Source: a virus
DNA length: 46,046 nt
Virus record (IMG/VR): IMGVR_UViG_3300037761_000122
Location: 1-46,046 of that record
Strand: one strand, 5' to 3'
Shown here: piece after piece, positions 1-39,007 of the stretch
Layout: each line of letters starts with the position of its first letter
Numbering within the stretch: the first letter of the stretch is position 1
Translations under genes and position numbers: made by a program
The notes under the pieces: generated by a model
What the model saw: the letters and a program-made list of their open reading frames with translations, nothing else
Database searches by the model: none
Told to the model about the DNA's origin: nothing

Positions 1-127
1 AGCCGCTTGACGTAGTCGGCTACTTCGGCGGGCTTGGAACCCGGCGCGGGGTAGTGGTCCCCGCGTGTCTCTTTGAGTCTGGCACGAACGTCAGGCGCGG
101 GAGGCGCCTGGTTCAGCTAGAGTCTGA
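1..127. repeat. Terminal direct repeat, copy 1 (circularisation overlap)
   Basis: Exact 127-nt identity with 45920..46046 (agccgcttgacgtagtcgg...gttcagctagagtctga). Confidence 0.97.
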
Positions 128-4563: not shown

Positions 4564-5303
4564 GACGCTTCCACCTGCATGCGTGCTTGGTACTCGGCGT
4601 CGCTCTCCCACGCGGAGGGGATGGTGTTCCTGGTGGCCCCTTGCTCAGCTATCACAGTCTCGAGAATCCGGCGGAAGAAGCGGCCTTGGTACTCCTGGCC
4701 CTCGGCTTCCATGCGAGCGATCGCAATACTCAGGCATCGATCGCGATCCTTGGGGTCATCGAGTGCCTTCAGGAGCAGCGGATCAGTGCCCTCCGAGCCC
4801 TGCCAGCCGTACATACCCCTGACGGACTTGACCGTATCGACCCCTCGCGTGTGCTGACGCGCAACAGCGCCCTCGCTAGAGGGTGCTGTTATGTCAGTGG
4901 TCAGTGGTCGGTGGTCACGCGCGACAGTGTCACGCCGTGACGGGGGCGTGACACCCGTGACACTTTCCCGCTCGCGCTGCCTTCGTTTCCGCTTTGCAGC
5001 CGTCCGGTCCGGCTCCTGATACTCGTCCCACTTAACGACCTGCCACCTTCGACCTTCGACCTTCAGCCCTCCATCCTTCTCCTCCACGGCCGCGCGCAAC
5101 ATCTCCTGAACGGCGCGGACCGACACATCCCACCTCTTGGCGGCGACCTTCGGGGCCATCGCCGCAGCCTCGCCCTTGCGTCCGTCTCGCTTCACGTAGC
5201 AGAGCAGCTTGATCCATGCGAGCTGCGCCATAGGCTCGAGCATGGCCACCCACTCGGTATCATCCCACTGAGCGTCGAGACGTAGCCAGCGGCGTGCGCT
5301 CAC
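4560..5303 (-). CDS. Putative replisome-organiser / DNA-binding replication protein
   Basis: 247 aa. N-terminal winged-helix-like WLRLDAQWDDTEW...LAWIKLLCY pattern, basic linker KRKRRQRER. Function is inferred only. Confidence 0.4.
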   Translation of the reverse strand: MSARRWLRLDAQWDDTEWVAMLEPMAQLAWIKLLCYVKRDGRKGEAAAMAPKVAAKRWDVSVRAVQEMLRAAVEEKDGGLKVEGRRWQVVKWDEYQEPDRTAAKRKRRQRERESVTGVTPPSRRDTVARDHRPLTTDITAPSSEGAVARQHTRGVDTVKSVRGMYGWQGSEGTDPLLLKALDDPKDRDRCLSIAIARMEAEGQEYQGRFFRRILETVIAEQGATRNTIPSAWESDAEYQARMQVEAS

Positions 5304-6295: not shown

Positions 6296-6414
6296 CGGGA
6301 GAGGACTCCCAAGCCGAGGGCGACCAGAGCCAGGACCCCGAGCACGGCGAGCAACAGCAATGCCCCGACCATCATTAGGCGCCACGCGATCCAGGTTGCC
6401 AGCTTCTCGTTCAT
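6292..6414 (-). CDS. 40-aa single-TM peptide
   Basis: MNEKLATWIAWRLMMVGALLLLAVLGVLALVALGLGVLSR. ATGA overlaps at both ends. Below the ORF-track size cut-off. Confidence 0.45.
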   Translation of the reverse strand: MNEKLATWIAWRLMMVGALLLLAVLGVLALVALGLGVLSR

Positions 6415-6599
6415 CGCTCCTCACTCTCCTCTCGGGGTGCGCGGCGCTCTCGATGGATCCGAATGCGTTCATATTCAACCACCTCGTCAACGTCGATGTC
6501 GCACTCGCCGAAAATGAACCCGTGCCAAGCGCCGTCTGAGAAGTCTTCCGCCACGCTCATCATCGCGTCGATGTGGCCCCACCTTGTTTCGTCCATCAC
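6411..6599 (-). CDS. Hypothetical acidic protein
   Basis: 62-aa ORF with ATGA coupling to the upstream gene. Confidence 0.5.
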   Translation of the reverse strand: MMDETRWGHIDAMMSVAEDFSDGAWHGFIFGECDIDVDEVVEYERIRIHRERRAPREESEER

Positions 6600-7162
6600 G
6601 TCGAACCTCCTTCCGCTTCGGGGGTGGCGAGGGCCGCATAGAGCACAAGCGTCCGGCCTTTCGCTTTCGGGTAGTCATAGATCGCATTGCACCAGTGCGC
6701 TTCCGCCACCTTCTCTGATTCGTGCATTACCGGCGAGCGGATCCAGCCCCGTCCGTCTCCCCAATCGACCTCGGCCATCCATGCGACCGCCTCCCTCTCG
6801 GGCTCCGCTGCCGTGGGGGCGGGGACGTAAGCGTTGACCGCAGCGACGATGAAGTCAGCATCAACGCCGTTCATGTCGGCGCTGATGACGTTGTCGTCCG
6901 CGTCCACCAACTCGGTGTATGTCAGGTCGTTCTCGAAGAGGCGCTCAACTCTCACCGGCCTCGGGATCGGGCACTCCCCTGTCTCGGCGGGCTCGGGAGC
7001 GGTGCCAGAGAGGCGGCCGACCTCGGCGCAGAGGGCTTCGATTGTGTCGGCGGCCTCGGTTAGCGCGTCGCGATGAACGCGGTCCATTGCTGCCTCGATC
7101 ACGTCTCCCGCGTCGTAGTCGAGATGCCGAAGCCTCTCCACCACGTCTCGTGTATCAGCCAT
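6596..7162 (-). CDS. Hypothetical protein with the shared TRDVxERLR...EAADxIEAL N-terminal domain
   Basis: 188 aa. The N-terminal ~45 aa are paralogous to 12228..12578, with visible DNA-level similarity. Confidence 0.6.
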   Translation of the reverse strand: MADTRDVVERLRHLDYDAGDVIEAAMDRVHRDALTEAADTIEALCAEVGRLSGTAPEPAETGECPIPRPVRVERLFENDLTYTELVDADDNVISADMNGVDADFIVAAVNAYVPAPTAAEPEREAVAWMAEVDWGDGRGWIRSPVMHESEKVAEAHWCNAIYDYPKAKGRTLVLYAALATPEAEGGST

Positions 7163-14513: not shown

Positions 14514-15079
14514 ACCATGGCCTCGTGCGCTCTGCGGCAACTGCGATGGTGGGCCTGGCGACCGTAGACGTACATAGCTGACGGGCTATCCCACTCCCTG
14601 CAGTAACGGCAACGCCTCCAGTCCGCATTTCCGCAGGCTTGGTGCGCACGCGCGCGACGCTCGATCAGGCAATGGTATGCGTGGTCCTCGCAGAGGACGA
14701 GGTTGCCGCGGCGGTTATCGTCCCGGATGCCGTTCACGTGGTGGACTTCGTGACAGGGGTCGAAGTGGCGGCCGATTGCGCGCTCAGCGATCAGCACGTG
14801 TTCCGCCACGTACCCGCGCATGTTCGCGCGCGGGTGGTCCGGACGATGAACTCGCACGTAGCCGTCGGCCATGTTCACGCGTCCGCCGTTCCACCTGTAA
14901 TGGCGCCGGCCTCGGGGCACCGGTGCATGGCCTCGTACGTAGCGCACGGGCTCGCCCTGAACGTCTCCTCGCCCGCTGCGGGTCTGCTTGGCAATTGACG
15001 TCATGCGCCCACATCCGCAGTGACAGCGCCCATAAGGGATCTGCGACGATGGCGGGTGCCTCAATCTTGCCCGGCTCAT
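14510..15079 (-). CDS. HNH endonuclease (HNH_3-type)
   Basis: 189 aa from the ATG at 15079. GYVRVHRPDHPRA...GYVAEHVL...EVHHVNGIRDDNRRGNLVLC. The upstream part of the 421-aa ORF is a shadow frame over the exonuclease gene. Confidence 0.8.
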   Translation of the reverse strand: MSRARLRHPPSSQIPYGRCHCGCGRMTSIAKQTRSGRGDVQGEPVRYVRGHAPVPRGRRHYRWNGGRVNMADGYVRVHRPDHPRANMRGYVAEHVLIAERAIGRHFDPCHEVHHVNGIRDDNRRGNLVLCEDHAYHCLIERRARAHQACGNADWRRCRYCREWDSPSAMYVYGRQAHHRSCRRAHEAMV

Positions 15080-15825
15080 GTCGCAGCCTCCTGTAGGCTG
15101 GCGATCAGCTCCCACTTCAGAGATTCGTCTTCCTCCACAACTTCGCCCATCGCGTGCAGCTTGCGTTCTGCCGTCGCGAGCTCGCGGAAGAAGCGTTGCA
15201 GGTGGTTGGTGATCGCCTCCTGCACGTCCTCCTCCGGGTAGACGCGCACTCGGATCTTCGGCAGGTCGGGGTTGAACGCGACCAGGTCGCACCACTCGCG
15301 TCCTGTCAGCCAGAGGTACCCGTTGGTTTGCAAGCGATAGTCGCCCGACAGGCTCTTGTGGCGCGTCAGGTACTGCATGTGCGTGGTCGCCTTCGGGCAC
15401 TTGATTTCGACGATGCCCTCGTCCCCCACGAGTCCGTCCGGCGAGCCTACGATCATGTCGTGGACGAAGCCGCCCTCGTCGGATACCGGGTCGCCCGCCT
15501 TGTCGACGCGCACCAGCTCGGTCGTGACCGCACCCACCTGCCGGACGTCCATGTCGTAATGCCACTCGTACCACTTGCGGCCGAAGTCCTCGCCCGCCTT
15601 GCCGTAGTCGGTCCAGAGCCCCGCGCCGGTCCGGTCTAGGACGCCGCCGAGCATGCGTTCGCCGATCAGTTCCGCGGCGTATCCCCGCGCGCCCGACGCG
15701 TAGCCGAGCTTTTCGGGCTGGATGATCCGCGACAGGCTGGACCCGGTGGGGTGGCCGGCCCTCAATGCCCACCACTCGTCACTGCCCTGCTCTATCTCGT
15801 GGATCGTGACCGGGCGCTCATGCAT
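15076..15825 (-). CDS. YqaJ/lambda-Exo-like recombination exonuclease
   Basis: 249 aa from the ATG at 15825. QGSDEWWALRAG N-terminus. PD-(D/E)XK core GSPDGLV...GIVEIKCP. Confidence 0.8.
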   Translation of the reverse strand: MHERPVTIHEIEQGSDEWWALRAGHPTGSSLSRIIQPEKLGYASGARGYAAELIGERMLGGVLDRTGAGLWTDYGKAGEDFGRKWYEWHYDMDVRQVGAVTTELVRVDKAGDPVSDEGGFVHDMIVGSPDGLVGDEGIVEIKCPKATTHMQYLTRHKSLSGDYRLQTNGYLWLTGREWCDLVAFNPDLPKIRVRVYPEEDVQEAITNHLQRFFRELATAERKLHAMGEVVEEDESLKWELIASLQEAAT

Positions 15826-16588
15826 CGGGCTTCGCCCCCTTCGCCTGGAGCGCGCGCCGGGCCTCGGTGAACCGATACGACGGCAGGGCCTTGAGCGAGC
15901 CGACGCCGAGGTAGGAGCAGAACCGGCGGGTGTCGGCGCCCGTGTCGGCAATCAGTTTCGTGAGCTCGTCGAACTCCGTGGCGTTGATCACCTCGGACGC
16001 ATCGCCTCCCGGCTGCTGGCCGTCCACGTCGTCATCAATCGTGATCCCCAGCAGTGCGGCCAGCACGTAGCGCTTGCCGTAGGTGATCGTGCCCGCGTAG
16101 CGCTGAGCGGGGCTGTCCTGCATGCCCGCGACGGGCAGGGTCACGGACGACTCGCGCGACGCGCCATCGACGTGCTGGAGGCGGCCCCGGATCTTGACCA
16201 GCTTGCCGTCCGTGTCCTCGGTGTCGAACGTGTAGGACAGCCCGACGCGGTGCAGCTCCGGGTCGATCACCTTCTGGATCGCACCGAGCGGCGCATAGTG
16301 GAAGTCGACCGACTTGCCGTTGGCCGTCGCGTACTTGACCTGCTTCGTCTTCTTGATCTCAGGGCACGCGGCCTTGAACTCCGCGAGCGCGACCACCAGC
16401 GCCGACTCGGCCTGGCGGTCTAGCAGCCGCATCTGCATGTCGACCAGCCGCTCGAGCGCCTCCACGCCCTCCGCTCCGTGCGCGAGCGCGGCGTCCATCA
16501 TCCGGGTCACGTCGGGCAGCGCTGCGGGCGCCTGAACGAGTGGTGCGGTCGCAACCGCGGTCCCGACCTCTATCTGTTCGTCGGCCAT
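15818..16588 (-). CDS. erf: ERF-family single-strand annealing protein
   Basis: 256 aa from the ATG at 16588 with a GGAGG RBS. FKAACPEIKKT...FHYAPLGAIQKVIDPEL...YGKRYVLAALLGITIDDDVDG. Confidence 0.8.
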   Translation of the reverse strand: MADEQIEVGTAVATAPLVQAPAALPDVTRMMDAALAHGAEGVEALERLVDMQMRLLDRQAESALVVALAEFKAACPEIKKTKQVKYATANGKSVDFHYAPLGAIQKVIDPELHRVGLSYTFDTEDTDGKLVKIRGRLQHVDGASRESSVTLPVAGMQDSPAQRYAGTITYGKRYVLAALLGITIDDDVDGQQPGGDASEVINATEFDELTKLIADTGADTRRFCSYLGVGSLKALPSYRFTEARRALQAKGAKPDA

Positions 16589-16611
16589 CGAGGCCTCCGT
16601 CGTTGGTGTGC

Positions 16612-16878
16612 TCACGCTCCGTCCCCCCACCCACGTAGCTGGTTCTCCCAGCGGTCGAGCAGGTGCTGTAGTTCGATGCATGCGGCCTGGTAGGTGTCCC
16701 TGGCCGGTACCGAATCGCTTCTCCGGCACGCGCGAATGTGCTCCACCCTAGCGTCCTCCCGCGCGTCGATCGCGTGCTCGATGTCGATGCGGGTGACCGT
16801 CTTGCGCCTGACCGTGGCGGGGTCGGTGGCGATCGTCGTGTAACTCGTCGGACGGGACGGCGACGTGCTCGCGCTCAT
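16612..16878 (-). CDS. Hypothetical protein
   Basis: 88 aa from the ATG at 16878 (ATGA overlap). Confidence 0.5.
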   Translation of the reverse strand: MSASTSPSRPTSYTTIATDPATVRRKTVTRIDIEHAIDAREDARVEHIRACRRSDSVPARDTYQAACIELQHLLDRWENQLRGWGDGA

Positions 16879-17147
16879 CGGACGCCCTCCTCTTGAGTCA
16901 GCCGCTCCCGTTCCATCCGGGCATGTGCCTGAGCGGTGCCGGCGCATCGGTCGCAAAGGGGATAAGCGGCGTCGGGCGGGATCGTGTATTCGCAGACGCT
17001 ACAGCCCGCGACCCGCAACCCGGTAGCGATGATCTCGTGGTCGCAGTTGATCGCGACCCACTCCCCGAACACTCGGACGACCTCGCACTCCTGGCCGTCG
17101 GACTCGTAGAGGCGCTCGGAGTCTGTCCACCAACGGATCGTGCTCAT
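16875..17147 (-). CDS. Small zinc-ribbon protein
   Basis: 90 aa. CSVC...CDRC. Confidence 0.55.
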   Translation of the reverse strand: MSTIRWWTDSERLYESDGQECEVVRVFGEWVAINCDHEIIATGLRVAGCSVCEYTIPPDAAYPLCDRCAGTAQAHARMERERLTQEEGVR

Positions 17148-17248
17148 GAGACCACCACCCCGTAGCCGGCCGCGAGCAGAGCAACGATCGCCACCAAGAT
17201 CGAGCCGAAAAACACGAACGCCATGCCGAGCAGGTATCGGTCAGTCAT
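17144..17248 (-). CDS. 34-aa single-TM peptide
   Basis: MTDRYLLGMAFVFFGSILVAIVALLAAGYGVVVS. Overlaps both neighbours (8 nt and ATGA). Confidence 0.4.
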   Translation of the reverse strand: MTDRYLLGMAFVFFGSILVAIVALLAAGYGVVVS

Positions 17249-17465
17249 CGGAATTCTCCGGGGCTGTCGTGGGTGCGGGCCGCTCGTCGGGCAGCAGTCC
17301 GCCGGGCGCCCAATACCGGGCATACAGTTCGTCCCACACTTCCGGCCATGCCGCGCGTAGCTTCACGGCGTTCCGGTCGTCTGCCTTTCGCATTGCTGCC
17401 ATGATGAGCGCATGGAACGGGACGGCAGTTAGCTCCATCGAGCGTTCGTAGTCGTAGCGGCTCAC
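17241..17465 (-). CDS. Hypothetical protein
   Basis: 74-aa ORF with ATGA coupling. Confidence 0.55.
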   Translation of the reverse strand: MSRYDYERSMELTAVPFHALIMAAMRKADDRNAVKLRAAWPEVWDELYARYWAPGGLLPDERPAPTTAPENSDD

Positions 17466-17821
17466 TTGTCACCATCCGTGGGTGCGGGCCTGGCAGCGGA
17501 CAGAGCAGCGGCCACCTTGCAGGCGGGGAAGTGGGCGCCGTGTGCGTTCGTGACTTCGCAGTAGGGGCAGGCGGCTTCGTATCCGCCCTGCACCATGTCG
17601 GCCAGCCCACCCCACTCGACTGCCTTTAGCGCCTCGTACAGAGCGGGAGCCGCGGCAATCAGGGCAGCGTTCGCCCTTCCCCGTTCCGTGGGGTTGAACG
17701 CGCCGGGGGTGATGTCGTCGCGGAACCCGTCCTCGTTTGCCTCGCCGTGCACGACGCGGAGCCCGCACGTCGCGGTGTGCTCGACGTACCACGGGCCCGG
17801 AGTGAATTGTCCGGTCATCAT
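17462..17821 (-). CDS. Hypothetical protein of the GPW...ANAxLIAAAPxLYEAL family
   Basis: 119 aa from the ATG at 17821. Paralogous to 17818..18105 through the NAALIAAAPALYEALKAVE motif. Confidence 0.6.
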   Translation of the reverse strand: MMTGQFTPGPWYVEHTATCGLRVVHGEANEDGFRDDITPGAFNPTERGRANAALIAAAPALYEALKAVEWGGLADMVQGGYEAACPYCEVTNAHGAHFPACKVAAALSAARPAPTDGDK

Positions 17822-18105
17822 GTGGGAGCCTCCGTGCCTTCGGCCTTCGCGATGGCGGCGCTGATCTTGTCCCACAGCCACGCCGGTACCTGGCCCGCGT
17901 CGTTCTCGATCGACGACAGCGCCTCGTACATGTCCGGAGCGGAGGCGATCAGGCGGGCGTTGGAGGCGATCTCAGCATTTTCGAAGTCCGTCCATGCCGG
18001 GAACGCCACTGCGCGACCGCTCTCGTCCTGCACGCGTATGGCCTTGCTCTCGTTCTCGTGGTCGTACCGGACCGTCCACGGACTCCGGTTGAACCCGCTC
18101 ACCAT
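17818..18105 (-). CDS. Hypothetical protein of the SPW...NARLIASAPDMYEAL family
   Basis: 95 aa from the ATG at 18105. Tandem paralogue of the downstream gene. Confidence 0.6.
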   Translation of the reverse strand: MVSGFNRSPWTVRYDHENESKAIRVQDESGRAVAFPAWTDFENAEIASNARLIASAPDMYEALSSIENDAGQVPAWLWDKISAAIAKAEGTEAPT

Positions 18106-18300
18106 GTCGCCACCCCACACAGCAGGATCACCGCGAGCTCGTTGAGATAGTCGAGCATCGCGAGCGTCGTGTGCTGGCGGCTCTTGGCCGATGCGTATTC
18201 CTCGGTCTCGGGCTTCGGGAGGTAGAGGACGGGGGGACTCGCCGGGGCGGATGTTTGGCATCCGGCGTGCCGGTTCTCGGATCTATGCGGCGGCATTCTT
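18106..18300 (-). ncRNA. Candidate TnpB omega-RNA 3' scaffold / element right-end region
   Basis: 177-nt ORF-poor gap after the tnpB stop at 18283. Stem-loop CGGAUG-CCAAA-CAUCCG at 18248..18264 and CCGG-CACG-CCGG beside it. Boundaries are not determinable by eye. Confidence 0.3.
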
Positions 18301-19395
18301 CTGCCCTCCGCTCCCCGATCGCTCTGCCCGAGCGAGGATGTTGCGCGCGGCGTTCACGTCCCGATCGAGCTCGAGCCCGCAGGTGCAGCGATGCACCCGG
18401 ACGCCCAGACTCTTGGGGGAGACGCTGCCACAGCCGCTGCATTCCTGAGACGTTCCGCGAGGGTCCACCGCGATCACTTCCCGCCCGGCGCTTTCAGCCT
18501 TGGTTCGGAGTGCGTGGAGGAACTGGCCCCAACCGGCGTCCGACACGCTCTTGGCGAGTCGGGTGCGGGCGAGGCCGCGGATGTTCAGGTCTTCGACAGC
18601 GATCGTGTCGTACCGCTGAACGAGGTCCACCGCGGTCTTGAAGTGGAAGTCGCGTCGCGCGTCCTGCACGGCCCGGTGCTTCCGGGCGAGAACGCGGACC
18701 GCCTTCCGGCGTCGGTTCCCGCCTCGCTTCCTGCGGCTCACCCGGCGCTGCGCGCGACGGAGATCCGCTGCGGCGGTCCGAAGGTGGCGCGGGTTGTCGA
18801 CCGTCTCGCCGTCCGAGGTCGCGAGGAACGAGGTGAGGCCAAGGTCGACGCCGATCGCTCGGCCGGTGTCGGCCAGCGGGCGTGCGGGGACACCCTCGCA
18901 GGAGAACGTCACCCACCAGTCGCCGCACCGGTCCCGCTTGAGCGTGACCGTCTTCGCGGTGCCCTCGATCGGGCGTGACAGGTGCAGCTTGATCCGGCCG
19001 ATGCCACGCAGGGTCAGGTGGCGACCGTCGAGCTTCCAACCTCTCTGGCGGAACGTGATCGAACTGAACCTGTCGCGGCCCTTGAAGCGTGGGTAGCCGG
19101 GCCGTTCGCCGTTCTTGACGCGCCGAAAGAACGCCTGGAACGCGCGCTCCAACCGGCTAAGCGTCCACTCGGTCGCGTGACGATCGAGGGCGCCATACTC
19201 GGGATCGGCCGCGCGGATCTCGGTGAGCTGGCGGCATTGGGTCACAAAGTTGACCCGCTCGCCTCGCTTCCAGTGGTCGCGCCGCTCCTCGAGGGCCGCA
19301 TTGTAGAGGTCTCGGAGGATGTGCAGCTGGCGATCCGCCCGGCGTGCTGCGCACGCCGTCAGCCTGGCCTTGTATCGGTAGGACCGCCTCATCAC
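18283..19395 (-). CDS. tnpB: TnpB (IS200/IS605-family OrfB) RNA-guided endonuclease, catalytic residues intact
   Basis: 370 aa. RuvC-I AIGVDLG, RuvC-II IAVEDLN, Zn finger CSGCG...CTCG, RuvC-III DRDVNAARNI. Start overlaps the stop of the upstream HTH gene. Confidence 0.9.
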   Translation of the reverse strand: MMRRSYRYKARLTACAARRADRQLHILRDLYNAALEERRDHWKRGERVNFVTQCRQLTEIRAADPEYGALDRHATEWTLSRLERAFQAFFRRVKNGERPGYPRFKGRDRFSSITFRQRGWKLDGRHLTLRGIGRIKLHLSRPIEGTAKTVTLKRDRCGDWWVTFSCEGVPARPLADTGRAIGVDLGLTSFLATSDGETVDNPRHLRTAAADLRRAQRRVSRRKRGGNRRRKAVRVLARKHRAVQDARRDFHFKTAVDLVQRYDTIAVEDLNIRGLARTRLAKSVSDAGWGQFLHALRTKAESAGREVIAVDPRGTSQECSGCGSVSPKSLGVRVHRCTCGLELDRDVNAARNILARAERSGSGGQKNAAA

Positions 19396-20871: not shown

Positions 20872-21209
20872 CCCGCGTGCAGTCCGCGATGGACGGCTCC
20901 GAGTACCGCGCCCTGCGTGAGACGATAGGCACCCAGGCCGAGGCGGCCGAGAGGCTCGGCGTCGCCCGGAACACGATCGCCAGACGCGAGCGCGGGGAGC
21001 TGTCGATCTCACGAGAAGTGGAGTACGCGATGCGCTGGGTGGCCCGCAGACAGCGGTTCACGATGGAGGACGTGGAAAGCCTGCGCGCCATCGCGAACGT
21101 GACACTGGACCGTGACCCGACCGAGCCTCACGCCAACCCGGTCGCCGCCGAACGCCACAGATCCATCGCTGACCGCATCGAAGCCTTACTCCCCCCGGCC
21201 GGAGATTGA
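20868..21209 (+). CDS. HTH (XRE-like) regulator with C-terminal FTxEDV...ADRIEALLPP domain
   Basis: 113 aa. HTH TQAEAAERLGVARNTIARRERGE. C-terminus homologous to 3113..3385. ATGA overlaps both sides. Confidence 0.7.
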   Translation: MTRVQSAMDGSEYRALRETIGTQAEAAERLGVARNTIARRERGELSISREVEYAMRWVARRQRFTMEDVESLRAIANVTLDRDPTEPHANPVAAERHRSIADRIEALLPPAGD

Positions 21210-22129
21210 CCATGCACATGCCGATGACCGTGGTACGAAAGACGGCGTTTCTGCCGCGCCAGGGCTTTCGCGATACCCGCTGGCTCGATCGGGTCGCCGA
21301 GCTTGGCCTACGTGAGGTCGAGGGCGAGCACCTGACAACGTGTCCAGGATGCGGACAGGAGCCCGAGCGCGTGATCGGCCAATACGTCCACTACTCGCAC
21401 CTCGGGCGGCTCATGGAGTGCTTATGCGGGCTCTGGTATTCGGACCTCCGGCTGAACGCTGAGACGGTCCGCGCCCACTTCGAGCGGGCGTACAAGGACG
21501 ACGGCTACTTCCGGGCACGAAGGCCCGTCTTCGACCACCTCGCGCGGCTCGTGAGTCAGCGCACGCCCCCTGGTGGATCCGTGCTCGACGTCGGTGGCGC
21601 GATGGGGCATCTGGCGCTCATGATCTGGAACATCCGACCCGACGTCGACCTGACCGTGACCGACGTGTCCGAAGATGCGTGCCGAAAGGCCAGAACGTGC
21701 GGCCTCCACGCGCTGCCGGTATCGGTCGCGGGCCTGCGTTGGCTACCGCAGTACGACGCCGTGATCTGCTCCGACGTGCTCTACTATGAGCCGAACATCG
21801 GGCAGGTGTGGGAGACGCTCTCGGGCATCGTCCGACCCGGCGGCTCGCTCATCATCCGCGGCCCCAACCGGACGGACACGATCCGCCATGCGGGCGGGAA
21901 GCAGCACCCGCTTTCGACTCGGCTCCGTGGCTTCAACCCCGAACACCTGTATGTGTTCACGCGCGAGTACCTCGAGGCGCGTCTGGCCGAGGTCGGGTTC
22001 ACCGGGGTCCGCACGCTGCCGTCGCCGGTGGGCACGGGCTCACGCCTCGCCACGCTCGCGGGTCGGGTCGCGTGCACCCTCGGGCTCCCAGTCACGCCGA
22101 GCGTGGTGACGATCGCGAGGAAGCCGTGA
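21206..22129 (+). CDS. Class I SAM-dependent methyltransferase with N-terminal Cys-rich (Zn-ribbon-like) domain
   Basis: 307 aa. CPGCG...CLCG, then motif I VLDVGGAMG, post-I TDVSEDA, DAVICSDVLYY, and PGGSLII. Confidence 0.8.
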   Translation: MTMHMPMTVVRKTAFLPRQGFRDTRWLDRVAELGLREVEGEHLTTCPGCGQEPERVIGQYVHYSHLGRLMECLCGLWYSDLRLNAETVRAHFERAYKDDGYFRARRPVFDHLARLVSQRTPPGGSVLDVGGAMGHLALMIWNIRPDVDLTVTDVSEDACRKARTCGLHALPVSVAGLRWLPQYDAVICSDVLYYEPNIGQVWETLSGIVRPGGSLIIRGPNRTDTIRHAGGKQHPLSTRLRGFNPEHLYVFTREYLEARLAEVGFTGVRTLPSPVGTGSRLATLAGRVACTLGLPVTPSVVTIARKP

Positions 22130-22263: not shown

Positions 22264-22273
22264 TCTCGGGCAC

Positions 22274-23278
22274 TCATCGGCCGCTCACGTACCACTCGCG
22301 TTCGAGCCAGTGGTGAGCACCAGCGGGAAGCGGGAACTGCGTGTGGTACATCTCCATGCCGTCGAACAGGACGCCGGGCCTAGTCGGGTCGCTCCACGCG
22401 ACGCCTGTCAGATGCCGCACGAGCGAGCCATCCACGTAGACGCGTGCCTCGCCGTCACCGCGGCCGTTCGCGCTCTCCGCGGTCAGGTACATCTCCAGGT
22501 GCCACGTCTCACCCGACGCGGGCGGGTAGCGCAAATCGAAGAAATAGTCATTGGTGGTGCCACCACCGCCGAGCTGCTTGACGAGCCCCTCGTTGACGCA
22601 GCCGGTCATGTAGATCTCGTTCGCGCCGCTGCCGATCTTCGCGTCCCGGTGCATCCCAAAGTAGAAGAACTTGAAGCCGTTGGCGATGCCGCTATCGCAC
22701 CCCGGTTGGCCCGCGGGGAAGAAGCGCCGATGCGATACGTACATCTCGCGGAGTCCACCACCCGCGTAGCCCTGACCGCAGTGGGTCGAGCCGAGGTCCG
22801 ACCAGCGTTCGAGCTTCGCGGCGCCACCACCACGTCCTGCCGGGTGCTGGACCTCGATTGCCTGACCTGAGCCGGTGGGATTGCCCGGATCGGCCACGAT
22901 GCGCGAGACGCCGTTGTAGCTGTTCGTGTTCCAGACGGCGGTCGACGGGTTGAGCAGGCACGTGCCGGGGTTGTCGTAGATGGGTGTGAGCCCCGTGGGC
23001 TCGTTCGGGTGCAGAGCGGACGGGGGCGGCGGCGGGTCCGGATCCGGGTCTGGTATGGGATCCGGCGTAGGATCCGGCGCGGGGTCCTCGGGGTCGCTGA
23101 CTGGCCCGACCGTCAGGCTGTCGAGCAGGGCGAGCACCTTTGAGAGCTGCGTCTCCGCTGCCCGGATGAACGCCCGCGAGCGCACCGCCTCGGCACGCAC
23201 GGAGTCTACCGTCACCTGGGCCTCTACTGGCGCCGCCAGCACCACCAGGGCCAGCGCCCACAGCATGTATCGTCTCAT
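22274..23278 (-). CDS. Secreted concanavalin-like polysaccharide-lyase-type protein (paralogue of 36315..37607)
   Basis: 334 aa. Signal peptide MRRYMLWALALVVLAAPVEAQ. Pro/Asp linker PDPTPDPIPDPDPDPPPPP. Shared blocks LHPNEP, VADxGNPTGSG, KIGxGANE, ESANGxGDGE, WSDP, EMYH. Confidence 0.7.
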   Translation of the reverse strand: MRRYMLWALALVVLAAPVEAQVTVDSVRAEAVRSRAFIRAAETQLSKVLALLDSLTVGPVSDPEDPAPDPTPDPIPDPDPDPPPPPSALHPNEPTGLTPIYDNPGTCLLNPSTAVWNTNSYNGVSRIVADPGNPTGSGQAIEVQHPAGRGGGAAKLERWSDLGSTHCGQGYAGGGLREMYVSHRRFFPAGQPGCDSGIANGFKFFYFGMHRDAKIGSGANEIYMTGCVNEGLVKQLGGGGTTNDYFFDLRYPPASGETWHLEMYLTAESANGRGDGEARVYVDGSLVRHLTGVAWSDPTRPGVLFDGMEMYHTQFPLPAGAHHWLEREWYVSGR

Positions 23279-23308
23279 CGTGCCTTCCCTGGAAGCAGGT
23301 TCATTGTG

Positions 23309-23668
23309 CTACCCCGTCAGGTGCCGGCCGCGGGGATCAATCTCGACGTGCACGTGCGCAACCCGCTGCTGGTACCGTGTATCGAGCGACGCCGGTCCCT
23401 CGACGATCACGTCGAAGTCCTCACCGAGCCGATTGCCGAGCTCGGTCGCGAACGCGCGCTGTTCGGTGGGCGGCCACTCGCGCGAGCGGATGTCCATGGC
23501 CTCGCCGGTCCCGTGCTTGGACGAGCCGCCAGGTGTCGGTGGGCGACGGGCCGACGTGATGACGAGATCCTCGTCGAACATCTCGCGCACGAGCAGCCGC
23601 GCCTCCACGCGGGCCGCCCACATCGCCGGGTGCATGTCCTTCCACGCGGAGTCGGAGAACGTCGTCAT
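23309..23668 (-). CDS. Endolysin, peptidase M15 (VanY / L-Ala-D-Glu peptidase-like)
   Basis: 119 aa from the ATG at 23668 (ATGA overlap). SSKHGTGEAMDI (SxHxxGxAxD) and HVHVE metal-ligand motifs. Confidence 0.8.
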   Translation of the reverse strand: MTTFSDSAWKDMHPAMWAARVEARLLVREMFDEDLVITSARRPPTPGGSSKHGTGEAMDIRSREWPPTEQRAFATELGNRLGEDFDVIVEGPASLDTRYQQRVAHVHVEIDPRGRHLTG

Positions 23669-23952
23669 GCGCCGCCCCTGAACCGGAGCACGATCACGTC
23701 GCGCACCACCGTGTACGGAATGACGTTGCCCGACACGAGCACGCCGAGTAGCGAGCCCACCAAGACGAGCGTGTTGTCCCGGTAGAGCGCGACGACGAAC
23801 GCGAGTCCCGATAGCACCACGCCTAGCGCGCCAGCCCACGCACGGAGTCGCTTCGTCCGCGCGTCCTCGATCGCGACCTCCTCACGGATGATCGCCTGCG
23901 GGTGCAGATCCTCGTCGTCGGACCGGATGTCGACTACGGTCGCCTTGCTCAC
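23665..23952 (-). CDS. Holin-like 2-TM protein
   Basis: 95 aa from the GTG at 23952 (GTGA overlap). Two hydrophobic helices. Immediately upstream of the endolysin. Confidence 0.5.
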   Translation of the reverse strand: MSKATVVDIRSDDEDLHPQAIIREEVAIEDARTKRLRAWAGALGVVLSGLAFVVALYRDNTLVLVGSLLGVLVSGNVIPYTVVRDVIVLRFRGGA

Positions 23953-24218
23953 TGGTCCTCCTTGAAGCGCATGTGTAGCTCGGTCATGATCCGCCGCTGT
24001 CGCTGTACGACGTCCACTACGTCCTCGGAGAGGGCGTCGAACCGCGCCAGGAGCCGCATCACCTTGACCGTCACGACGATCGCCAGCCCGAGCATACCGA
24101 CGAGCACCCCGAGCGGGATCCACGTCTCGTCGGGCGTGAGCAGCGTCTGGATCGCGCCGACCGACGTCGAGATCCCGAGGGCTAGCAGCGAGGCGCCGTA
24201 CACCTGGATTTCACGCAT
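23949..24218 (-). CDS. Holin/antiholin-like 2-TM protein
   Basis: 89 aa from the ATG at 24218. TM helices ASLLALGISTSVGAI and WIPLGVLVGMLGLAIVVTV, with a charged C-terminus. Confidence 0.45.
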   Translation of the reverse strand: MREIQVYGASLLALGISTSVGAIQTLLTPDETWIPLGVLVGMLGLAIVVTVKVMRLLARFDALSEDVVDVVQRQRRIMTELHMRFKEDQ

Positions 24219-24714
24219 TGGCCCTCCATGCGGCACGGGCGAACAGCCCGAAGGCGGCGAGACGTGCGCTCTGGTAGGCCCACCACCATGGCATAAACAC
24301 GCCCTGCCACTCGGCCGCCATCGCCAGATATGCGAGCGTGCCGAAGCCGCAGTAGACGAACATGGACCACGCGAGCCGATGATTCTTCGCGAGCAGCAAC
24401 ACGATGATCGAGCCGAGCGCCGCTAGCACCTCCGGGCCGGCGAGCCAGAGCCCCCATGCAGCCACCACGTAGGCGAGCATGACCACCGGACCGCCGAACG
24501 CCAGCAGCAGCAAGCCGAACTGAGCGAGCGTCCAGACCGCGACGCCCTCCCACGAGCCGCCCGTCACGATCGCGTAGCTCTCGTGAACGAACGCCGTCGC
24601 GAACGCTGCCGCGACCAGCCAGTGGTAGGTGGTCCGCCGGACGACGAGTACGCCGGCCGGAGCGAGCGGGAGCCAGTGCGCGACCTCGTACATCAGGGGC
24701 AATTCGGTGGGCAA
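24211..24714 (-). CDS. Polytopic membrane protein (about 5-6 TM)
   Basis: 167-aa ORF, Trp-rich and hydrophobic throughout. Confidence 0.6.
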   Translation of the reverse strand: MPTELPLMYEVAHWLPLAPAGVLVVRRTTYHWLVAAAFATAFVHESYAIVTGGSWEGVAVWTLAQFGLLLLAFGGPVVMLAYVVAAWGLWLAGPEVLAALGSIIVLLLAKNHRLAWSMFVYCGFGTLAYLAMAAEWQGVFMPWWWAYQSARLAAFGLFARAAWRANA

Positions 24715-29820: not shown

Positions 29821-31344
29821 CTACTGAACGGAGGCGGTCCAGGCGAAGTCGACGTCCTGGCCGGGGTCTTGGTCGACGTTGATCGTGAACTGCGTGGAGG
29901 TTGGGGTGCTGATCCAGAACTGTGTCATGGCGCCCCATGCCTCGATCGGGGTGACGGAGATGTCTTGGATGTCTGGCGTGACCCCGAGCCCGTGGGTGAC
30001 GACGATGGTCGTGTTGCCGTTGAGGAGCGTGGCGACGCCGTTTCCGACAACGGCCGGAATCTGGTACCGGGCGGCACCCACGTAGATCGCGAGCTTCGCA
30101 CCACTCGCACCCGCGTCTTCGATGCAGATACTTTGATCCTCGACCGCATCCGCAGCCGGAAGTGACGCCGTCTCGTAGGCCGGCAGAGCCACCCGAGAAT
30201 CCCACTCCCGTAGCCTGTTCCCGTTCTCGTCGAAGCGCACCTCGATCTTGGTGTGCCGCCGTTCAATGGCGCCCGTACTCGGCACGTTGAACCCGTCTTC
30301 AGCGTCCACGAAATCGTAATCGTAATCGTAGTTGACGCTGAATTGCTCGATCGTGTTACGGACCACCTGCGTCCCCGCCGACCGGCTTTGGACAACGGCC
30401 ATCGTACCAGTCAAACCGCCGTAGGTCTGTGAGACGGGAGGTTCTACCGGATTGGTGACGTGCAAGCCGATAAAGCGGTTGTTCTGGTCTGGCGAATCCT
30501 CTCCCATGAGGATCGGGCGCATGCAATCCTCAAGGTGAGTGCGGAGGAACAGATTGTCAGAACATTGACTCCCCTCGGTCCTGATGCCGTGCTCAAAGCC
30601 CGGTGTCGCTCCGGTGTCTACGGAGATCGCGCCGAACGTGCATCTACGCACACTATTGAGTACGATGGCGTCGGTGTCGGCGGCCGGAGACGTGACGCGC
30701 ATCTGGCCGAAGAACACGTTCTGGGTGATGTGCGTGGCCGGTAGCGTGGACGGCCGGATCTTGATGCCGAACGTCTGAGGGGCGAGCACGTGGATGCCGT
30801 CGATCATACACCCTTCGTTGAGCCCGTTCGCCAGCAAGCCCGGCGCAGCACCTATGCAATGGATCTGCATATGTAGGAACCGCAACGCCGTCGCGAAAAC
30901 GTCAGGGTCGCCGTTGAGCACGACCATGGCATCCGTGATGACCGCGCTCGCGTGCCTGCGGATGCGGGTGGCTGTTTGGCCTGCACCAACGACCTTGACG
31001 CCCTCCGGGATGATCCAATCGCGGGATATCCGGTAGTTACCTGCAGGGACTAAGACGACAGAGCCCTCCGAGTCGGGCAGGGGGTTGACGTCAACAGCAG
31101 CGGCTACAGCGGCATCTAGGGCGACAATCTCATCTGCTGAGTCGTCGCCTTTTGCACCGAACGCCCGGACGTCGAATACTTCCGACGCGCTCCCGAGCAG
31201 CTCCGCGAGTGCCGCGTCCTTCGCGGTGTCGAAGTTGTAGCCGTCGAGCTGGGACCCGACGCGCGCCCGGATCTGATCGGCCAGCCTGACGCCGGTGATG
31301 CTACCCTCGTCCTGGCCCGGAGGAGGCCACGTGTATATGCTCAT
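29821..31344 (-). CDS. Tailspike / depolymerase with pectate-lyase-type right-handed beta-helix
   Basis: 507 aa. FDVRAFGAKGDDSADEIVALDAAVAAA (Pectate_lyase_3-type motif) followed by repetitive beta-helix-like sequence. Lower GC. Confidence 0.7.
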   Translation of the reverse strand: MSIYTWPPPGQDEGSITGVRLADQIRARVGSQLDGYNFDTAKDAALAELLGSASEVFDVRAFGAKGDDSADEIVALDAAVAAAVDVNPLPDSEGSVVLVPAGNYRISRDWIIPEGVKVVGAGQTATRIRRHASAVITDAMVVLNGDPDVFATALRFLHMQIHCIGAAPGLLANGLNEGCMIDGIHVLAPQTFGIKIRPSTLPATHITQNVFFGQMRVTSPAADTDAIVLNSVRRCTFGAISVDTGATPGFEHGIRTEGSQCSDNLFLRTHLEDCMRPILMGEDSPDQNNRFIGLHVTNPVEPPVSQTYGGLTGTMAVVQSRSAGTQVVRNTIEQFSVNYDYDYDFVDAEDGFNVPSTGAIERRHTKIEVRFDENGNRLREWDSRVALPAYETASLPAADAVEDQSICIEDAGASGAKLAIYVGAARYQIPAVVGNGVATLLNGNTTIVVTHGLGVTPDIQDISVTPIEAWGAMTQFWISTPTSTQFTINVDQDPGQDVDFAWTASVQ

Positions 31345-36314: not shown

Positions 36315-37607
36315 TCAGCAGCTCCCCGGCTCGCAGCCGCTGATATACAGCTCACGCTGGTACCAGTAATGCTCGTTGTCTGCCGCATACTGCGAGTGGT
36401 ACATCTCGAAGCCGTCGAGCAAGCGCCCGGAGAAGTTCGGATCGCTCCAGTCCAGGCCACCCCACGGGCTGTCGTTGACCTCTGTGCCGTTGACCCAAAT
36501 GCGCAACTCGCCGTCGCCGGCGCCGTTCGCGCTTTCGGCCTGCCTCCAGTATTCGACCGTCCACTCGGTGTCGAATGCGGGCGGGAAGGCGTAGCCCGCA
36601 CCCGTGATATAGAACTGGTGCGGATCGGGACCAGGTAGACCGCCGTGCTGGACCGCCCATAGGTCGCCACCAGAGCACGTCGCGGAATAGAACTCGTTCG
36701 CGCCCTCGCCGATCTTCGCCGTCGGCTCGACGCCGTAGTAATTGAGCTTGATTCCGTTGAGTTCGCCCTGGCACGGAGAGAGTCCTGCTGTGGGGATGTA
36801 GAGCCGGAACATGATGTACTGTTGCTCCAGACCACCACCGACGTAGCCGACGCCCCCGAAGTTGCTACCGAGTCCCGTGAAGCGATTCAGCTTGCCGCCC
36901 CATCCACCACCCGACGTTCGGTGTGTGAACTTGACCGAAAACCCTGAGCCTGTCGGATTGCCAGCGTCAGCGACCACCTCGGCATTGGCCTCGTAAGACG
37001 ACACGTCGAACCAGCCGGGTTGACCGCCACCCGCACGACGAGGGAGCGAGTCGAACGTGCCGGGGTTGTTCCACACGGTCACGAACCCCGCGGGCTCGTT
37101 CGGATGCAGTCCAGAAACAGTCATCTCGACACCGAGCAAGGTGTCCGGCGCCGACCACCCTCCAGACGTGCCCTTGTAGCCCGTCACGATGTCGACGACC
37201 GCGCCGGAATCCGCCGCGATCGAGTCACGCTGGATCGCGCCGAGCGTGTCGCCGAAGTACTGAGGCGCGGAGAAGTTGCCGCCCGACGTGTCCACAAGGA
37301 TGTACGCTGAGTCCTGCGCGTCACCGCCAGACCCTACGTACGTTCCGAGGTCGATCCAGAGACTGTCGCCCTGGGTACGGTAGACGGTCGCGATGGTCGT
37401 CGGGGCGTTCGGGGCTCCTGCCGGGGGCGCGCCACCACCAGGGTCGCCAGGACCCGATTGACCGGGTGCGAGCACCGCCCCGCCGAATCCACCAAAGAAC
37501 GAGAGGGCGCCAAACGTCAGCGCCGTAGTCACGGACGCGGTCAGGCCCGCGATCACCGGCCACCTCACCGCGTCATGGCGGGCACGGCGCTCAGGGAGAT
37601 TGTTCAC
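36315..37607 (-). CDS. Virion-associated concanavalin-like polysaccharide-lyase-type protein (paralogue of 22274..23278)
   Basis: 430 aa. N-terminal hydrophobic segment with the SFFGGFGGAVLA motif. The C-terminal ~260 aa align block by block with the secreted paralogue. Confidence 0.65.
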   Translation of the reverse strand: MNNLPERRARHDAVRWPVIAGLTASVTTALTFGALSFFGGFGGAVLAPGQSGPGDPGGGAPPAGAPNAPTTIATVYRTQGDSLWIDLGTYVGSGGDAQDSAYILVDTSGGNFSAPQYFGDTLGAIQRDSIAADSGAVVDIVTGYKGTSGGWSAPDTLLGVEMTVSGLHPNEPAGFVTVWNNPGTFDSLPRRAGGGQPGWFDVSSYEANAEVVADAGNPTGSGFSVKFTHRTSGGGWGGKLNRFTGLGSNFGGVGYVGGGLEQQYIMFRLYIPTAGLSPCQGELNGIKLNYYGVEPTAKIGEGANEFYSATCSGGDLWAVQHGGLPGPDPHQFYITGAGYAFPPAFDTEWTVEYWRQAESANGAGDGELRIWVNGTEVNDSPWGGLDWSDPNFSGRLLDGFEMYHSQYAADNEHYWYQRELYISGCEPGSC

Positions 37608-39007
37608 GCTACACTCCGTCCCGAGTGGGTGTAGTGCGTGAACGCGTAGCCTTTCGTCCCGCCATTGAGTTGGGTACGCACGCGTGCTTCTGGGTAGCCG
37701 ACGCCGTAGAGGTAGTTCACCAGCGGGCGGGCGGCTTCGTGCGGTCCCTCGAAGTACACCCAGTTGTTGTCCGAGTGGTTATCCGCAAGGTATTTCAGCC
37801 GGGTTGCGGCACGGAGCGCGGCCGAGTCCGACCATAGGTGCGCATCACCGTACCCGAGCCTTCGGATGATCTCGACCGTCGCGAGCGCGGGTCCGAGCGC
37901 CTCCTCCACGTAGCGCAGCGTCGTGGCGCCCGGATAGACGGTCCACTGGTCGCCCGAATTCGGGATCGTGCCCTTGGCCGTGGTCCACGTCACGTCGCCC
38001 GTCCCAATGTTGTGGGTGGCGACAACGCGATTCACGCCATCAGCCGTGAAGTACAGCCGCTCGCCGACGATCGACGTTGTGGGCGCGTTCGCTCCGAGGT
38101 TTGCAGCCGTCGTCGTGCCGTCTGACGGGAAAGTCCCGCTCCAGAACGAGTCGTCGCGTCGCATCTCCTCCGGCTGGATGCCGTCAAAGTCGTGACCGAA
38201 GCGCGTCACGCCTTGGCCCACGATCCCACGCAGCGTGGCTGAGTCGGCCGGGTCTTCGTGCCACGACAGATCCGGCGAAGCGGTCGGTCCCCACAGCGCT
38301 TCCGCGCCACCGCGGGTTCTGTCACCCAACCAGAACGCGACCTCCTCCACGATGCCATCGAGCTCCGCCGTGTCGCCGATGTAGGCGTACGTGATGATGC
38401 AGGTCCACCGGCAGTAATTCCCGATGTTGTTGGGCCTGGCGTAGGCTCCGTCCCTGACACTGGTCATCCCGCCGCCGACGTAGGATTCCGTGAGCGCACC
38501 TTCCGCGAAGGCCGAGAAATCGGCGTGCAGCGTCGGGTTGTTGACCCTGATGTTGCACATGTCAGCGGCCAAGACGTACGCCCCAAGGTTGCGGGCGTAG
38601 CCGAGTGCTTGGGTGTTGTCCTTCGGATATCCTGCGTCGATCAGGTCTTGCAAGTACGCCTCGACCTTCGTCCGGTAGGACGCCGTGCCGGTCCGGAGGT
38701 ACACGAGCCCACCCGAGAGTGCGTAGAGGTTCGTCGTCGAATCCTGGTCGTCCATCGCAGCGGCGGGCCACGTCGCATCCGCCGTCGCGAGCATGTCCGT
38801 CCAGTCGTCTCCGCTCATCGGGCGGGTGTCGATTTCCGCTTTCGAGATCCACAGGCCCAAGGGCCTCGGATCACTTGGCGCATAGCGAGCATTCCCCGCC
38901 AGCACCGGGCCGGCGAAGCCACCAAAGAAAGAGCGCGCACCGTAGTCGAGGGGCTCAAGGAGCTTGCTCACGCTTCCGCTCCCGCCAGCGTTCCACGATC
39001 TCGTCAA
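37604..39007 (-). CDS. Alginate-lyase / heparinase-like (alpha/alpha toroid) polysaccharide lyase
   Basis: 467 aa. WTDMLATADATWP...LVYLRTGTASYRTKVEAYL...ARNLGAYVLAAD resembles an Alginate_lyase-type N-domain. N-terminal SFFGGFAGPVLA motif. A start at GTG ~38969 is also possible. Confidence 0.6.
   Translation of the reverse strand: MTRSWNAGGSGSVSKLLEPLDYGARSFFGGFAGPVLAGNARYAPSDPRPLGLWISKAEIDTRPMSGDDWTDMLATADATWPAAAMDDQDSTTNLYALSGGLVYLRTGTASYRTKVEAYLQDLIDAGYPKDNTQALGYARNLGAYVLAADMCNIRVNNPTLHADFSAFAEGALTESYVGGGMTSVRDGAYARPNNIGNYCRWTCIITYAYIGDTAELDGIVEEVAFWLGDRTRGGAEALWGPTASPDLSWHEDPADSATLRGIVGQGVTRFGHDFDGIQPEEMRRDDSFWSGTFPSDGTTTAANLGANAPTTSIVGERLYFTADGVNRVVATHNIGTGDVTWTTAKGTIPNSGDQWTVYPGATTLRYVEEALGPALATVEIIRRLGYGDAHLWSDSAALRAATRLKYLADNHSDNNWVYFEGPHEAARPLVNYLYGVGYPEARVRTQLNGGTKGYAFTHYTHSGRSVA

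Follow-up and report, generated by a model that had tools for sequence, protein, structure and literature searches.

A predicted exported, lysis-linked paralogue of a putatively virion-docked polysaccharide lyase-like domain in a high-G+C phage genome

The IMG/VR record IMGVR_UViG_3300037761_000122 was analysed over its full 46,046 nt (the window) and is the complete genome of a soil phage, with a G+C content of ~66%. The contig is taken to be complete, circular or terminally redundant, at ~45.9 kb, because an exact 127-bp direct repeat stands at its two ends (1..127 and 45920..46046). Two of its open reading frames (ORFs), here called A and B, encode paralogous copies of one beta-jelly-roll domain, and this paralogy is real and well beyond chance. 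We propose, with moderate confidence, that the product of ORF A is exported and not packaged in virions, and that it belongs to a rare branch, found with phages, of the jelly-roll superfamily of polysaccharide lyases (PL) of the PL14/PL36/PL20 type. As the last late gene, A would share a transcript with the holin candidates and the endolysin and have a function in release. The two genes represent a lysis-linked, export signal-bearing paralogue and a probably virion-docked PL14-like domain, and would form a bacterial-virus counterpart of the free and virion-bound pair of the chloroviruses.

ORF A, 22274..23278, minus strand: 334 aa, from the ORF and its translation; exported-type, non-structural paralogue and final gene of the late (lysis) operon.
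Jelly-roll domain of A (aa 87-334), 22277..23020, minus strand: PL14/PL36/PL20-like by Foldseek; predicted local distance difference test (pLDDT) scores mostly 85-97.
ORF B, 36315..37607, minus strand: 430 aa; N-terminal docking-type peptide, beta-rich middle and jelly-roll domain; structural-module paralogue.
Jelly-roll domain of B (aa 165-424), 36336..37115, minus strand: 42% identical to A; Foldseek matches 6kzk (PL36) and 3gne/3a0n (PL14).

An earlier note on this sequence had claimed that A aligns with the C-terminal ~260 aa of B, and BLASTP bears this out (42% identity over 262 aa, A 87-333 against B 165-424, E=2e-49). All of the motif blocks listed at that time can be found in the alignment, namely LHPNEP, VADxGNPTGSG, GGGL, NG(I/F)K and KIG(E/S)GANE, followed by ESANGxGDGE, WSDP, DG(F/M)EMYH and RE(L/W)Y(I/V)SG. 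When a hidden Markov model (HMM) of the domain was run on the six-frame translation of the window, exactly two copies were detected, A and B. The G+C content at third codon positions of ORF A (0.83) is consistent with a real gene.

The relationship between the two copies is an old one. Two related IMG/VR contigs, of 42 kb (L001/L007) and 34.9 kb (L008), carry both types of gene, and an identity matrix, examined together with a neighbour-joining tree, gives 80-97% identity for the A domains among these two contigs and the window. Over the domain, the orthologue in L001 matches the window copy of A at 97% identity and that in L008 at 80%, and both occupy the post-endolysin position. The B domains of the same three genomes are about 40-57% identical to each other, and B is 36-46% identical to the A of its own genome. 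At the DNA level the A regions of the window and L001 are 92% identical, whereas the B regions are essentially without nucleotide similarity, and among relatives the B slot is occupied by different branches of the family, including two tandem B-type genes in a further relative, L016. Since the A copies are conserved and the B copies swapped among relatives, the duplication must be old; a recent in-genome duplication of A and B was considered and rejected on the basis of the same matrix and tree. The earlier note had read the pair as one glycan-active domain made in two forms. The paralogous domain stands, but the two copies are old paralogues that do not co-vary, which weakens that reading and makes a common substrate for A and B unlikely. 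Their specificities probably differ; the target of A may be a conserved polymer, and those of B may vary.

The call of a signal peptide on A was made by manual criteria and by conservation among homologues. Upstream of the jelly-roll domain the protein is organized as follows.

Signal peptide (aa 1-20, MRRYMLWALALVVLAAPVEA), 23219..23278, minus strand: manual n/h/c analysis and -3/-1 rule; cleavage predicted at A|Q.
Helix module (aa 22-55), 23114..23215, minus strand: AlphaFold helix at residues 24-54; putative mobile N-terminal adaptor or oligomerization helix.
Pro/Asp-rich linker (aa 56-86), 23021..23113, minus strand: 48% of residues Pro and 26% Asp or Glu; low pLDDT without predicted secondary structure.

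The N-terminus of A, MRRYMLWALALVVLAAPVEA|QV, has an MRR n-region, a 13-residue hydrophobic (h) region, YMLWALALVVLAA, with a mean Kyte-Doolittle value of 2.35, and a c-region, P-V-E-A, that places V at -3 and A at -1, the layout of a Sec signal cleaved by signal peptidase I. The same n/h/c layout is kept in the four homologues compared, including those of L001, L008 and a further relative, L002, despite their differing sequences, and with this support the signal peptide seen by the earlier note is retained as a prediction. Two arginines followed by any residue and two hydrophobic residues are conserved in all four homologue signals compared, to be set against the (S/T)RRxFLK motif and weakly hydrophobic h-region of Tat signals. 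The signals are short (19-21 aa), with a strongly hydrophobic h-region and a c-region lacking a basic residue, and from their shortness and hydrophobicity Sec appears the more likely export route than Tat. There is no Cys lipobox in A. Two cysteines of the mature protein, C194 and C227, are invariant within the close family and would fit a disulfide formed outside the cytoplasm.

The segment that follows provides a further argument for export. Residues 22-55 of A match the first 34 residues of a 365-aa alginate lyase-family protein of L016 (53% identity, E=2e-7). This protein has no signal peptide, a stop codon lying just upstream of its start. The homology begins directly after the predicted cleavage site of A, and the signal peptide thus appears to be an add-on in front of a pre-existing helix adaptor, from which it can be argued that export is a selected feature. 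At this position L008 and L002 have a different, non-homologous helical segment. The linker noted earlier after the signal peptide is confirmed in composition at aa 56-86, and analogous PD-, PE- or EP-rich linkers are present in the A homologues.

ORF A also lies together with the lysis genes. The minus strand runs from a long structural block through several small membrane proteins to a small peptidase and then to ORF A.

Holin/antiholin candidates, 23665..23952, 23949..24236 and 24211..24714, minus strand: three overlapping membrane-protein genes with 1-3 transmembrane segments each by hydropathy.
Endolysin candidate, 23309..23668, minus strand: M15/LAS-type peptidase of 119 aa from an internal ATG; motifs SKHGTGEAMD and HVH.
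Shine-Dalgarno-like GGGAAGG, 23283..23289, minus strand: 4 nt upstream of the ATG of A, read from the sequence.

The two motifs of the peptidase are instances of the M15/LAS zinc motifs (SxHxxGxAxD and HxH), and its profile matches are weak (Pfam VanY, E=0.01; Peptidase_M15_3, E=0.06; PHROG_894 endolysin, E=0.004). Its TAG at 23309 and the ATG of A at 23278 are 30 nt apart, in agreement with the spacing and separate ribosome-binding site described in the earlier note. Plus-strand ORFs ending at 22263 converge on the 3' side of A, which makes A the final gene of a leftward late operon, again as that note had it. One convergent gene (21206..22129, plus strand) is a 307-aa methyltransferase-like gene, and its homologue in L008 likewise ends the late operon.

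The linkage to lysis genes is retained among relatives, in which clear endolysins fill the corresponding slot. The three holin-candidate genes of the window are 47-95% identical to genes located 5' of the endolysins in L001, L008 and another relative, L003. In L001 the A orthologue, whose N-terminus (MRRHMLW...) was restored by extending the called ORF, is directly 3' of an Amidase_2 endolysin. L008 has holin-like genes, an endolysin (PHROG_465, E=1.2e-24) and then the A orthologue with the signal MMRRYLLWALALTLLASPLAA|Q, followed immediately by a B-type gene and then by homologues of those genes that come after B in the window. In L003 the order is holin-like genes, Amidase_2, a 199-aa protein, a signal-less A-type gene (58% identity) and the start of a B-type gene, and L002 has a signal-bearing A-type gene (52% identity) 3' of small ORFs. 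Co-orientation and adjacency with the holin and endolysin genes are therefore seen in the window and in L001 and L008, and in L003 a single gene intervenes. Identity is 47-97% for the holin-like genes and A, whereas the endolysin slot changes between M15-like, Amidase_2 and PHROG_465 types; by this comparison the A-type gene accompanies the holin/endolysin block with three or four endolysins that are not orthologous. Even in the window, where the B block is 13 kb away between head and tail genes, A remains with the lysis genes, and it is chiefly from this linkage that we argue for a function of A in lysis rather than in the structural block. Separately, the relatives have small opposite-strand lipoprotein genes (L008 6739..6951 and 6354..6737, and L001 7301..7513, all minus strand; MKWLPLLAALAVGGC... 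and MINARILALTLLCGC...) wedged between tail and lysis genes. These look like morons, e.g. for superinfection exclusion, and a counterpart was not seen in the lysis region of the window.

Polysaccharide lyases are the best structural matches of the domain. The PL14/PF14099-like pattern guessed at in the earlier note is supported at the level of fold (AlphaFold and Foldseek) and superfamily (hhalign), not of PL14 membership or catalysis, and the sequence matches of A and B remain below threshold. For the A model (overall pLDDT 79) the best Foldseek matches were 6kzk (the PL36 alginate lyase Aly36B; E=1.6e-8), 2zzj (the PL20 glucuronan lyase TrGL; 9.7e-8), 3gne (2.1e-7) and 3a0n (PL14 vAL-1 of a chlorella virus) and 5gmt (PL14 from Aplysia; 1.2e-6). 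The independently built B model gave 6kzk (PL36; 8e-8), 3gne (PL14; 1.8e-7) and 3a0n, Aly36B and vAL-1 ranking first. Lectins, toxin binding domains and glycoside hydrolase family 16 (GH16) enzymes rank below the lyases for the A model, and the structure prediction that the earlier note had suggested as a check thus favoured PL36, PL14 and PL20 enzymes over lectins. Both jelly rolls match solved PL14, PL20 and PL36 lyases in fold. Against predicted viral structures, chlorovirus proteins and concanavalin A-like phage tail proteins lead. The domain therefore shares a fold class with the CAZy PL14, PL36 and PL20 lyases and differs from them in that A and B fall below every sequence threshold and form a cluster of their own.

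This cluster is very rare on the basis of the searches made. A tblastn search of 50,697 phage genomes with the domain gave no match, 15 proteins, B itself included, were found among 5.8 billion clustered proteins, and an HMM search of 1.84 billion representatives yielded 137 proteins at E<=1e-3, which split into a phage-associated family of 18 and two larger cellular clusters. Scans of metagenomes and genomes with the domain yielded nothing but distant relatives, those in genomes coming from two Gemmatimonadales metagenome-assembled genomes (27-31% identity). By hhalign the A/B profile matches the cellular cluster with 99.9% probability (E=2.8e-34), and members of that cluster have collinear, sub-threshold matches to PF14099 (Polysacc_lyase) and PF21294 (Polysacc_lyase_14) within the same domain. 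Among 61 relatives scanned, PF14099 was matched in 11 and PF21294 in five; one of the phage B-type copies of L016 also has a weak PF14099 match. The distant relatives are multidomain secreted-type proteins that carry Big_2, fn3 or dockerin domains.

A few residues of the domain are strongly conserved. Among aligned representatives of the three clusters, Y180, K203, Y206, E262, S269 and D275-G276 (A numbering) show little or no variation. The majority of the aligned sequences also have R184, and Q235 is conserved within the close family; these residues fall on consecutive predicted strands. The catalytic residues of vAL-1 are Lys, Ser, Arg, Tyr and Tyr, and Aly36B uses Lys as both catalytic base and acid. 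The pattern in A would suit a Tyr/Lys/Arg lyase centre together with a structural Ca2+ site.

Two further contigs carry related domains. At L006 71..907 (plus strand) an Ig-like repeat stands before a close A-type domain (67% identity) that is truncated where the contig ends. It adjoins a Wzy_C polymerase and a methyltransferase (1807..3117, minus strand), and this looks like a cellular O-antigen or extracellular polysaccharide (EPS) locus. Three copies of a distant superfamily member occur on one 5.3-kb metagenome contig (L013 3..1175, 1196..2431 and 3949..4845, plus strand).

B lies between the head genes (portal, scaffold and major capsid protein) and tail spike-like genes, and the following features bear on its attachment to the virion.

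N-terminal peptide of B, 37464..37568, minus strand: contains GALSFFGGFGGAVLAP; putative virion-docking peptide, common to the 467-aa neighbour (E=1e-6).
467-aa alginate lyase-family-like protein, 37604..39007, minus strand: N-terminal peptide as in B; body related to tail proteins.
Pectate lyase-like beta-helix tail-spike candidate, 29821..31344, minus strand: 507 aa; PF12708 at E=8.4e-11, above cut-off; PHROG tail/tail-spike.

The 467-aa protein carries GARSFFGGFAGPVLAG (38890..38960, minus strand), and the peptide common to it and B reads GA(L/R)SFFGGF(G/A)G(A/P)VLA; a search of the window ORFs for SFFGGF-type peptides found none beyond these two. The last ~420 aa of giant tail proteins of 1175 aa in L008 and 1537 aa in L001, the latter with a weak pectate lyase-like match, share 83-84% identity with the body of the 467-aa protein, and in the window a short docking peptide looks like the replacement for a covalent fusion to the tail protein. 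At L016 the 365-aa protein (2793..3890, plus strand) is followed by the two tandem B-type genes, which have the SFFGGF N-terminus; it is 31% identical to the 467-aa protein and passes the PF05426 Alginate_lyase cut-off (29.8 bits against 22.2). P0020 and the genes of L016 keep the N-terminal ~150 residues of B and have divergent C-terminal domains. The earlier note's view of B as virion-type is thus indirectly supported, by an N-terminus common to a neighbour whose body sits in tail proteins, by exchangeable C-terminal domains and by location in the structural block, and we infer a place for B on the virion. A comparison of L016 with ORF A suggests that N-terminal adaptors are shuffled among lyase-like bodies. 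The final 73 residues of the 507-aa beta-helix candidate are 74% identical to part of the 1537-aa tail protein of L001, and with this protein the phage has three different lyase-type structural proteins.

The arrangement of B resembles the branched tail spikes of Klebsiella phages KP32, K11 and KP34, for which an anchor-and-conserved-peptide concept has been put forward (PMC6872550, PMC13352976). B and the 467-aa protein likewise have a short common N-terminal peptide on unrelated enzymatic bodies, and these bodies are swapped, or fused to a larger tail protein, in relatives. Unlike in the Klebsiella systems, the peptide sequence is unrelated, docking of B is a prediction and no anchor protein was identified; the comparison concerns B and not A. 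The model of B is uninformative over aa 1-163 (pLDDT below 50). A search of IMG/VR with the N-terminus of B returned nothing, as did a large protein search with the N-terminal 60 aa of A. The hydrophobicity of the B N-terminus is borderline (Kyte-Doolittle KD19 1.61) and leaves room for a membrane-active or ejection role.

We propose that A is made late in infection and that its 20-aa signal peptide would carry it across the cytoplasmic membrane independently of the holin, probably through Sec and possibly through Tat. The mature protein would consist of the helix, a rigid Pro/Asp spacer and the 248-aa jelly-roll domain and would be located in the envelope or outside the cell. There it may cleave, or at least bind, an acidic, uronate-type envelope or extracellular polysaccharide, so that progeny could leave the capsule or EPS matrix and would not be trapped on debris, a role ascribed in the chloroviruses to the free lyase vAL-1/A215L. 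A host with an acidic polysaccharide coat would fit with the two further lyase-type structural proteins of this phage, those related to PF05426 and PF12708. B would be the old paralogue, part of a modular and fast-swapping set of virion-docked depolymerases and probably of different specificity.

A free and virion-bound lyase-type pair of this kind is known from the algal chloroviruses and has not been described for bacterial viruses. The chlorovirus enzyme vAL-1 (A215L), with a Pro-rich repeat N-terminus and a ~244-aa PL14 catalytic domain, is unpackaged and remains in the lysate, and PBCV-1 A561L is a virion protein in which a C-terminal PL14-like domain, 32% identical, stands after a long N-terminal extension that includes a transmembrane segment; infectivity rose on enzyme treatment, apparently via the removal of receptor debris (PMC8145301, PMC9614988). 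Both systems have two paralogous jelly-roll lyase-type domains per virus (32% identical in PBCV-1 and 42% here), with one paralogue unpackaged and tied to wall digestion before release in the chloroviruses, and the other in the virion, as A561L is and as B is predicted to be. A also has a Pro-rich N-terminus before its domain, as vAL-1 does, and chlorovirus proteins are among its best fold matches. The differences are that no sequence similarity to A or B can be detected, that the present virus is a tailed virus of a bacterium in which A has a cleavable-type signal peptide and lies in a holin/endolysin cassette, and that catalysis by A is read from its fold. Soluble phage depolymerases that cause plaque halos (PMC9658697) offer a second comparison. 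A is similarly predicted to be a non-virion glycan- or envelope-degrading activity released around lysis, but the known soluble forms are usually the tail spike itself, produced in excess or from an internal start, and A is a separate, signal-bearing and slow-evolving paralogue.

If A is an active exported lyase, tailed phages would, like chloroviruses, assign glycan degradation at entry and at exit to separate old paralogues that are selected differently. Virion copies would be swapped quickly while the lysis-linked copy is conserved, and a polysaccharide-degrading accessory class would be added to lysis cassettes. The protein would then represent a conserved and probably broad-specificity anti-capsule or anti-biofilm enzyme scaffold from an uncharacterized family. 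The domain family is a candidate for a new CAZy PL family, and the phage set is a clean case of N-terminal adaptor swapping among depolymerases.

How far A is a 'freely secreted' form, as the earlier note had it, depends on the host. The signal is of the export type, but the A-type copies of L003 and L004 lack one and the outcome would be decided by whether the host envelope is monoderm or diderm; in a diderm host the exported protein would stay periplasmic until lysis. Portal, scaffold and major capsid protein are encoded on the minus strand (PHROGs), and the only cultured relatives of the head genes are those of Arthrobacter and Microbacterium phages, at 24-27% identity. A diderm host would be more in keeping with the short signal peptide and with endolysins that are small and have a single domain, whereas the head genes point weakly to Arthrobacter and Microbacterium phages.

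Several observations weigh against the proposal for A. Signal-less A-type genes exist in L003 and L004. The endolysin of the window is a candidate, called from its motifs and weak matches. The helix of A is by homology a mobile N-terminal module that also heads an alginate lyase-like protein at the structural locus of L016, and in L008 and L003 the B-type block directly follows the A-type gene and could include it. Searches of Pfam, PHROG and PDB sequences with A and B found no match (Pfam E<=0.1) apart from a low-complexity match of the linker, and against solved structures neither a phmmer search with A nor hmmsearch runs with three domain profiles gave more than noise, in the form of WD-repeat-like 'DGxxxxW' matches and cytochrome c peroxidase. 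Neither A nor B reaches the Pfam gathering thresholds of PF14099 or PF21294, and nor do their relatives, the best of which (P0033) scores 29.8 bits against a cut-off of 29.9, with others at 15-24 bits. Target-normalized TM-scores to the lyases are modest (0.45-0.57), the jelly-roll fold is also found in lectins, toxin binding domains and GH16/GH131 enzymes, and no residue-level alignment to a solved lyase was obtained, leaving the PL14 catalytic residues unmapped. TtX122 of Teredinibacter turnerae (CAZy X122; PDB 8q28/8q29/8q2a) has a PL20/Cip1-like jelly roll for which neither activity nor binding was detected (PMC10916295). Its domain is among the top fold matches of A and B, with no sequence relationship found, and its inactivity is a warning against reading function from fold alone.

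One alternative explanation is that A is an effector of the third step of lysis, exported before the holin acts, that cuts the outer polysaccharide holding the cell together after loss of peptidoglycan and so resembles LysB or stands in for spanins. Export ahead of the holin and a gene beside the endolysin are known from signal-peptide endolysins and accessory lysis enzymes such as fOg44 Lys44 and mycobacteriophage LysB, and LysB acts in lysis on the outer layer; LysB differs from A in being an esterase of unrelated fold. The fixed position of A immediately 3' of non-orthologous endolysins would suit such a role, as would the finding that no lipoprotein or lipobox ORF (o- or u-spanin) is present within 21800-25800 on either strand. 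The 199-aa protein beside the signal-less A-type gene of L003 (1624..2223, plus strand) hints at interchangeable solutions: it has an N-terminal transmembrane domain, a long predicted coiled coil and a C-terminal transmembrane domain and is a possible spanin-like or other lysis membrane protein, for which no lipoprotein partner was found. However, the only cultured relatives of the head genes (24-27% identity) infect monoderm Actinobacteria, which have no need of spanins, nothing indicates that A is needed for lysis and some A-type genes have no export signal, and we regard a step-three role as unlikely. A itself was rejected as a spanin. Spanins have either an uncleaved N-terminal transmembrane domain with periplasmic coiled coils and an outer-membrane lipoprotein partner, or a lipobox with a C-terminal transmembrane domain, whereas A has a cleavage site after an h-region of only 13 residues, too short for this, and no lipoprotein partner is encoded within 21800-25800.

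An equally improbable explanation is that the domain is non-catalytic and that A is an exported lectin-like carbohydrate-binding protein, which might mask receptors and block superinfection or re-adsorption. Jelly-roll matches to lectins and toxin binding domains at E ~1e-6, the precedent of TtX122 (PMC10916295), the failure to reach any lyase family by sequence and the unidentified PL14 catalytic set would all be accounted for in this way. On the other side, lyases are top-ranked for two independent models, the only Pfam families touching the domain in relatives are lyase families, and Tyr, Lys and Glu are invariant, with Arg mostly kept, on consecutive strands in three divergent clusters. 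It is very unlikely that A is a virion component such as a side fibre or decoration, with a hydrophobic N-terminus that is not secretory or with particle joining after lysis: although A- and B-type genes are adjacent and co-oriented ahead of structural-looking genes in L008 and L003, signal-less A-type genes exist and the helix has its homologue at the start of the 365-aa protein of L016, which fills the slot of the putatively docked 467-aa protein of the window, A is with the lysis genes in the window and 13 kb from the B block, its n/h/c layout and conserved cleavage site are typical of cleaved signals with an h-region too short for an anchor, and it evolves slowly, unlike the receptor-facing B-type copies.

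The proposal of an exported, lysis-linked A can be extended. A-type proteins might form a new polysaccharide lyase family in which the phage members are dedicated, signal-exported 'exit' enzymes. These would join holin and endolysin as a conserved third part of the lysis cassette, would breach an acidic and conserved polymer in the envelope or EPS of a high-G+C soil host not yet cultured, in functional parallel to LysB or spanins, and would evolve independently of the entry depolymerases. As a whole we consider this extended version rather doubtful.

The remaining observations concern the genome at large. A terminase candidate (1148..2716) has a weak match to the terminase region of Microbacterium phage Shocker. 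In Shocker (L009), a distant relative by its head genes, genes annotated as 'glycoside hydrolase', 'hydrolase' and 'esterase' lie between the capsid and tail genes (15046..18499), and they occupy a slot equivalent to that of the 467-aa and B genes of the window. Foldseek also matches the A model to a 260-aa Shocker protein named 'Hydrolase', which has no sequence similarity to A. An ERF-family recombinase is encoded at 15818..16729 (minus strand; E=1e-15). A 370-aa TnpB-type protein (18283..19395, minus strand) has an OrfB_IS605 match (E=6e-25), a Cas12f1-like TNB domain (E=1e-22) and an HTH_OrfB_IS605 domain, and by these matches it is an IS200/IS605-family or OMEGA nuclease-like passenger in the phage genome.

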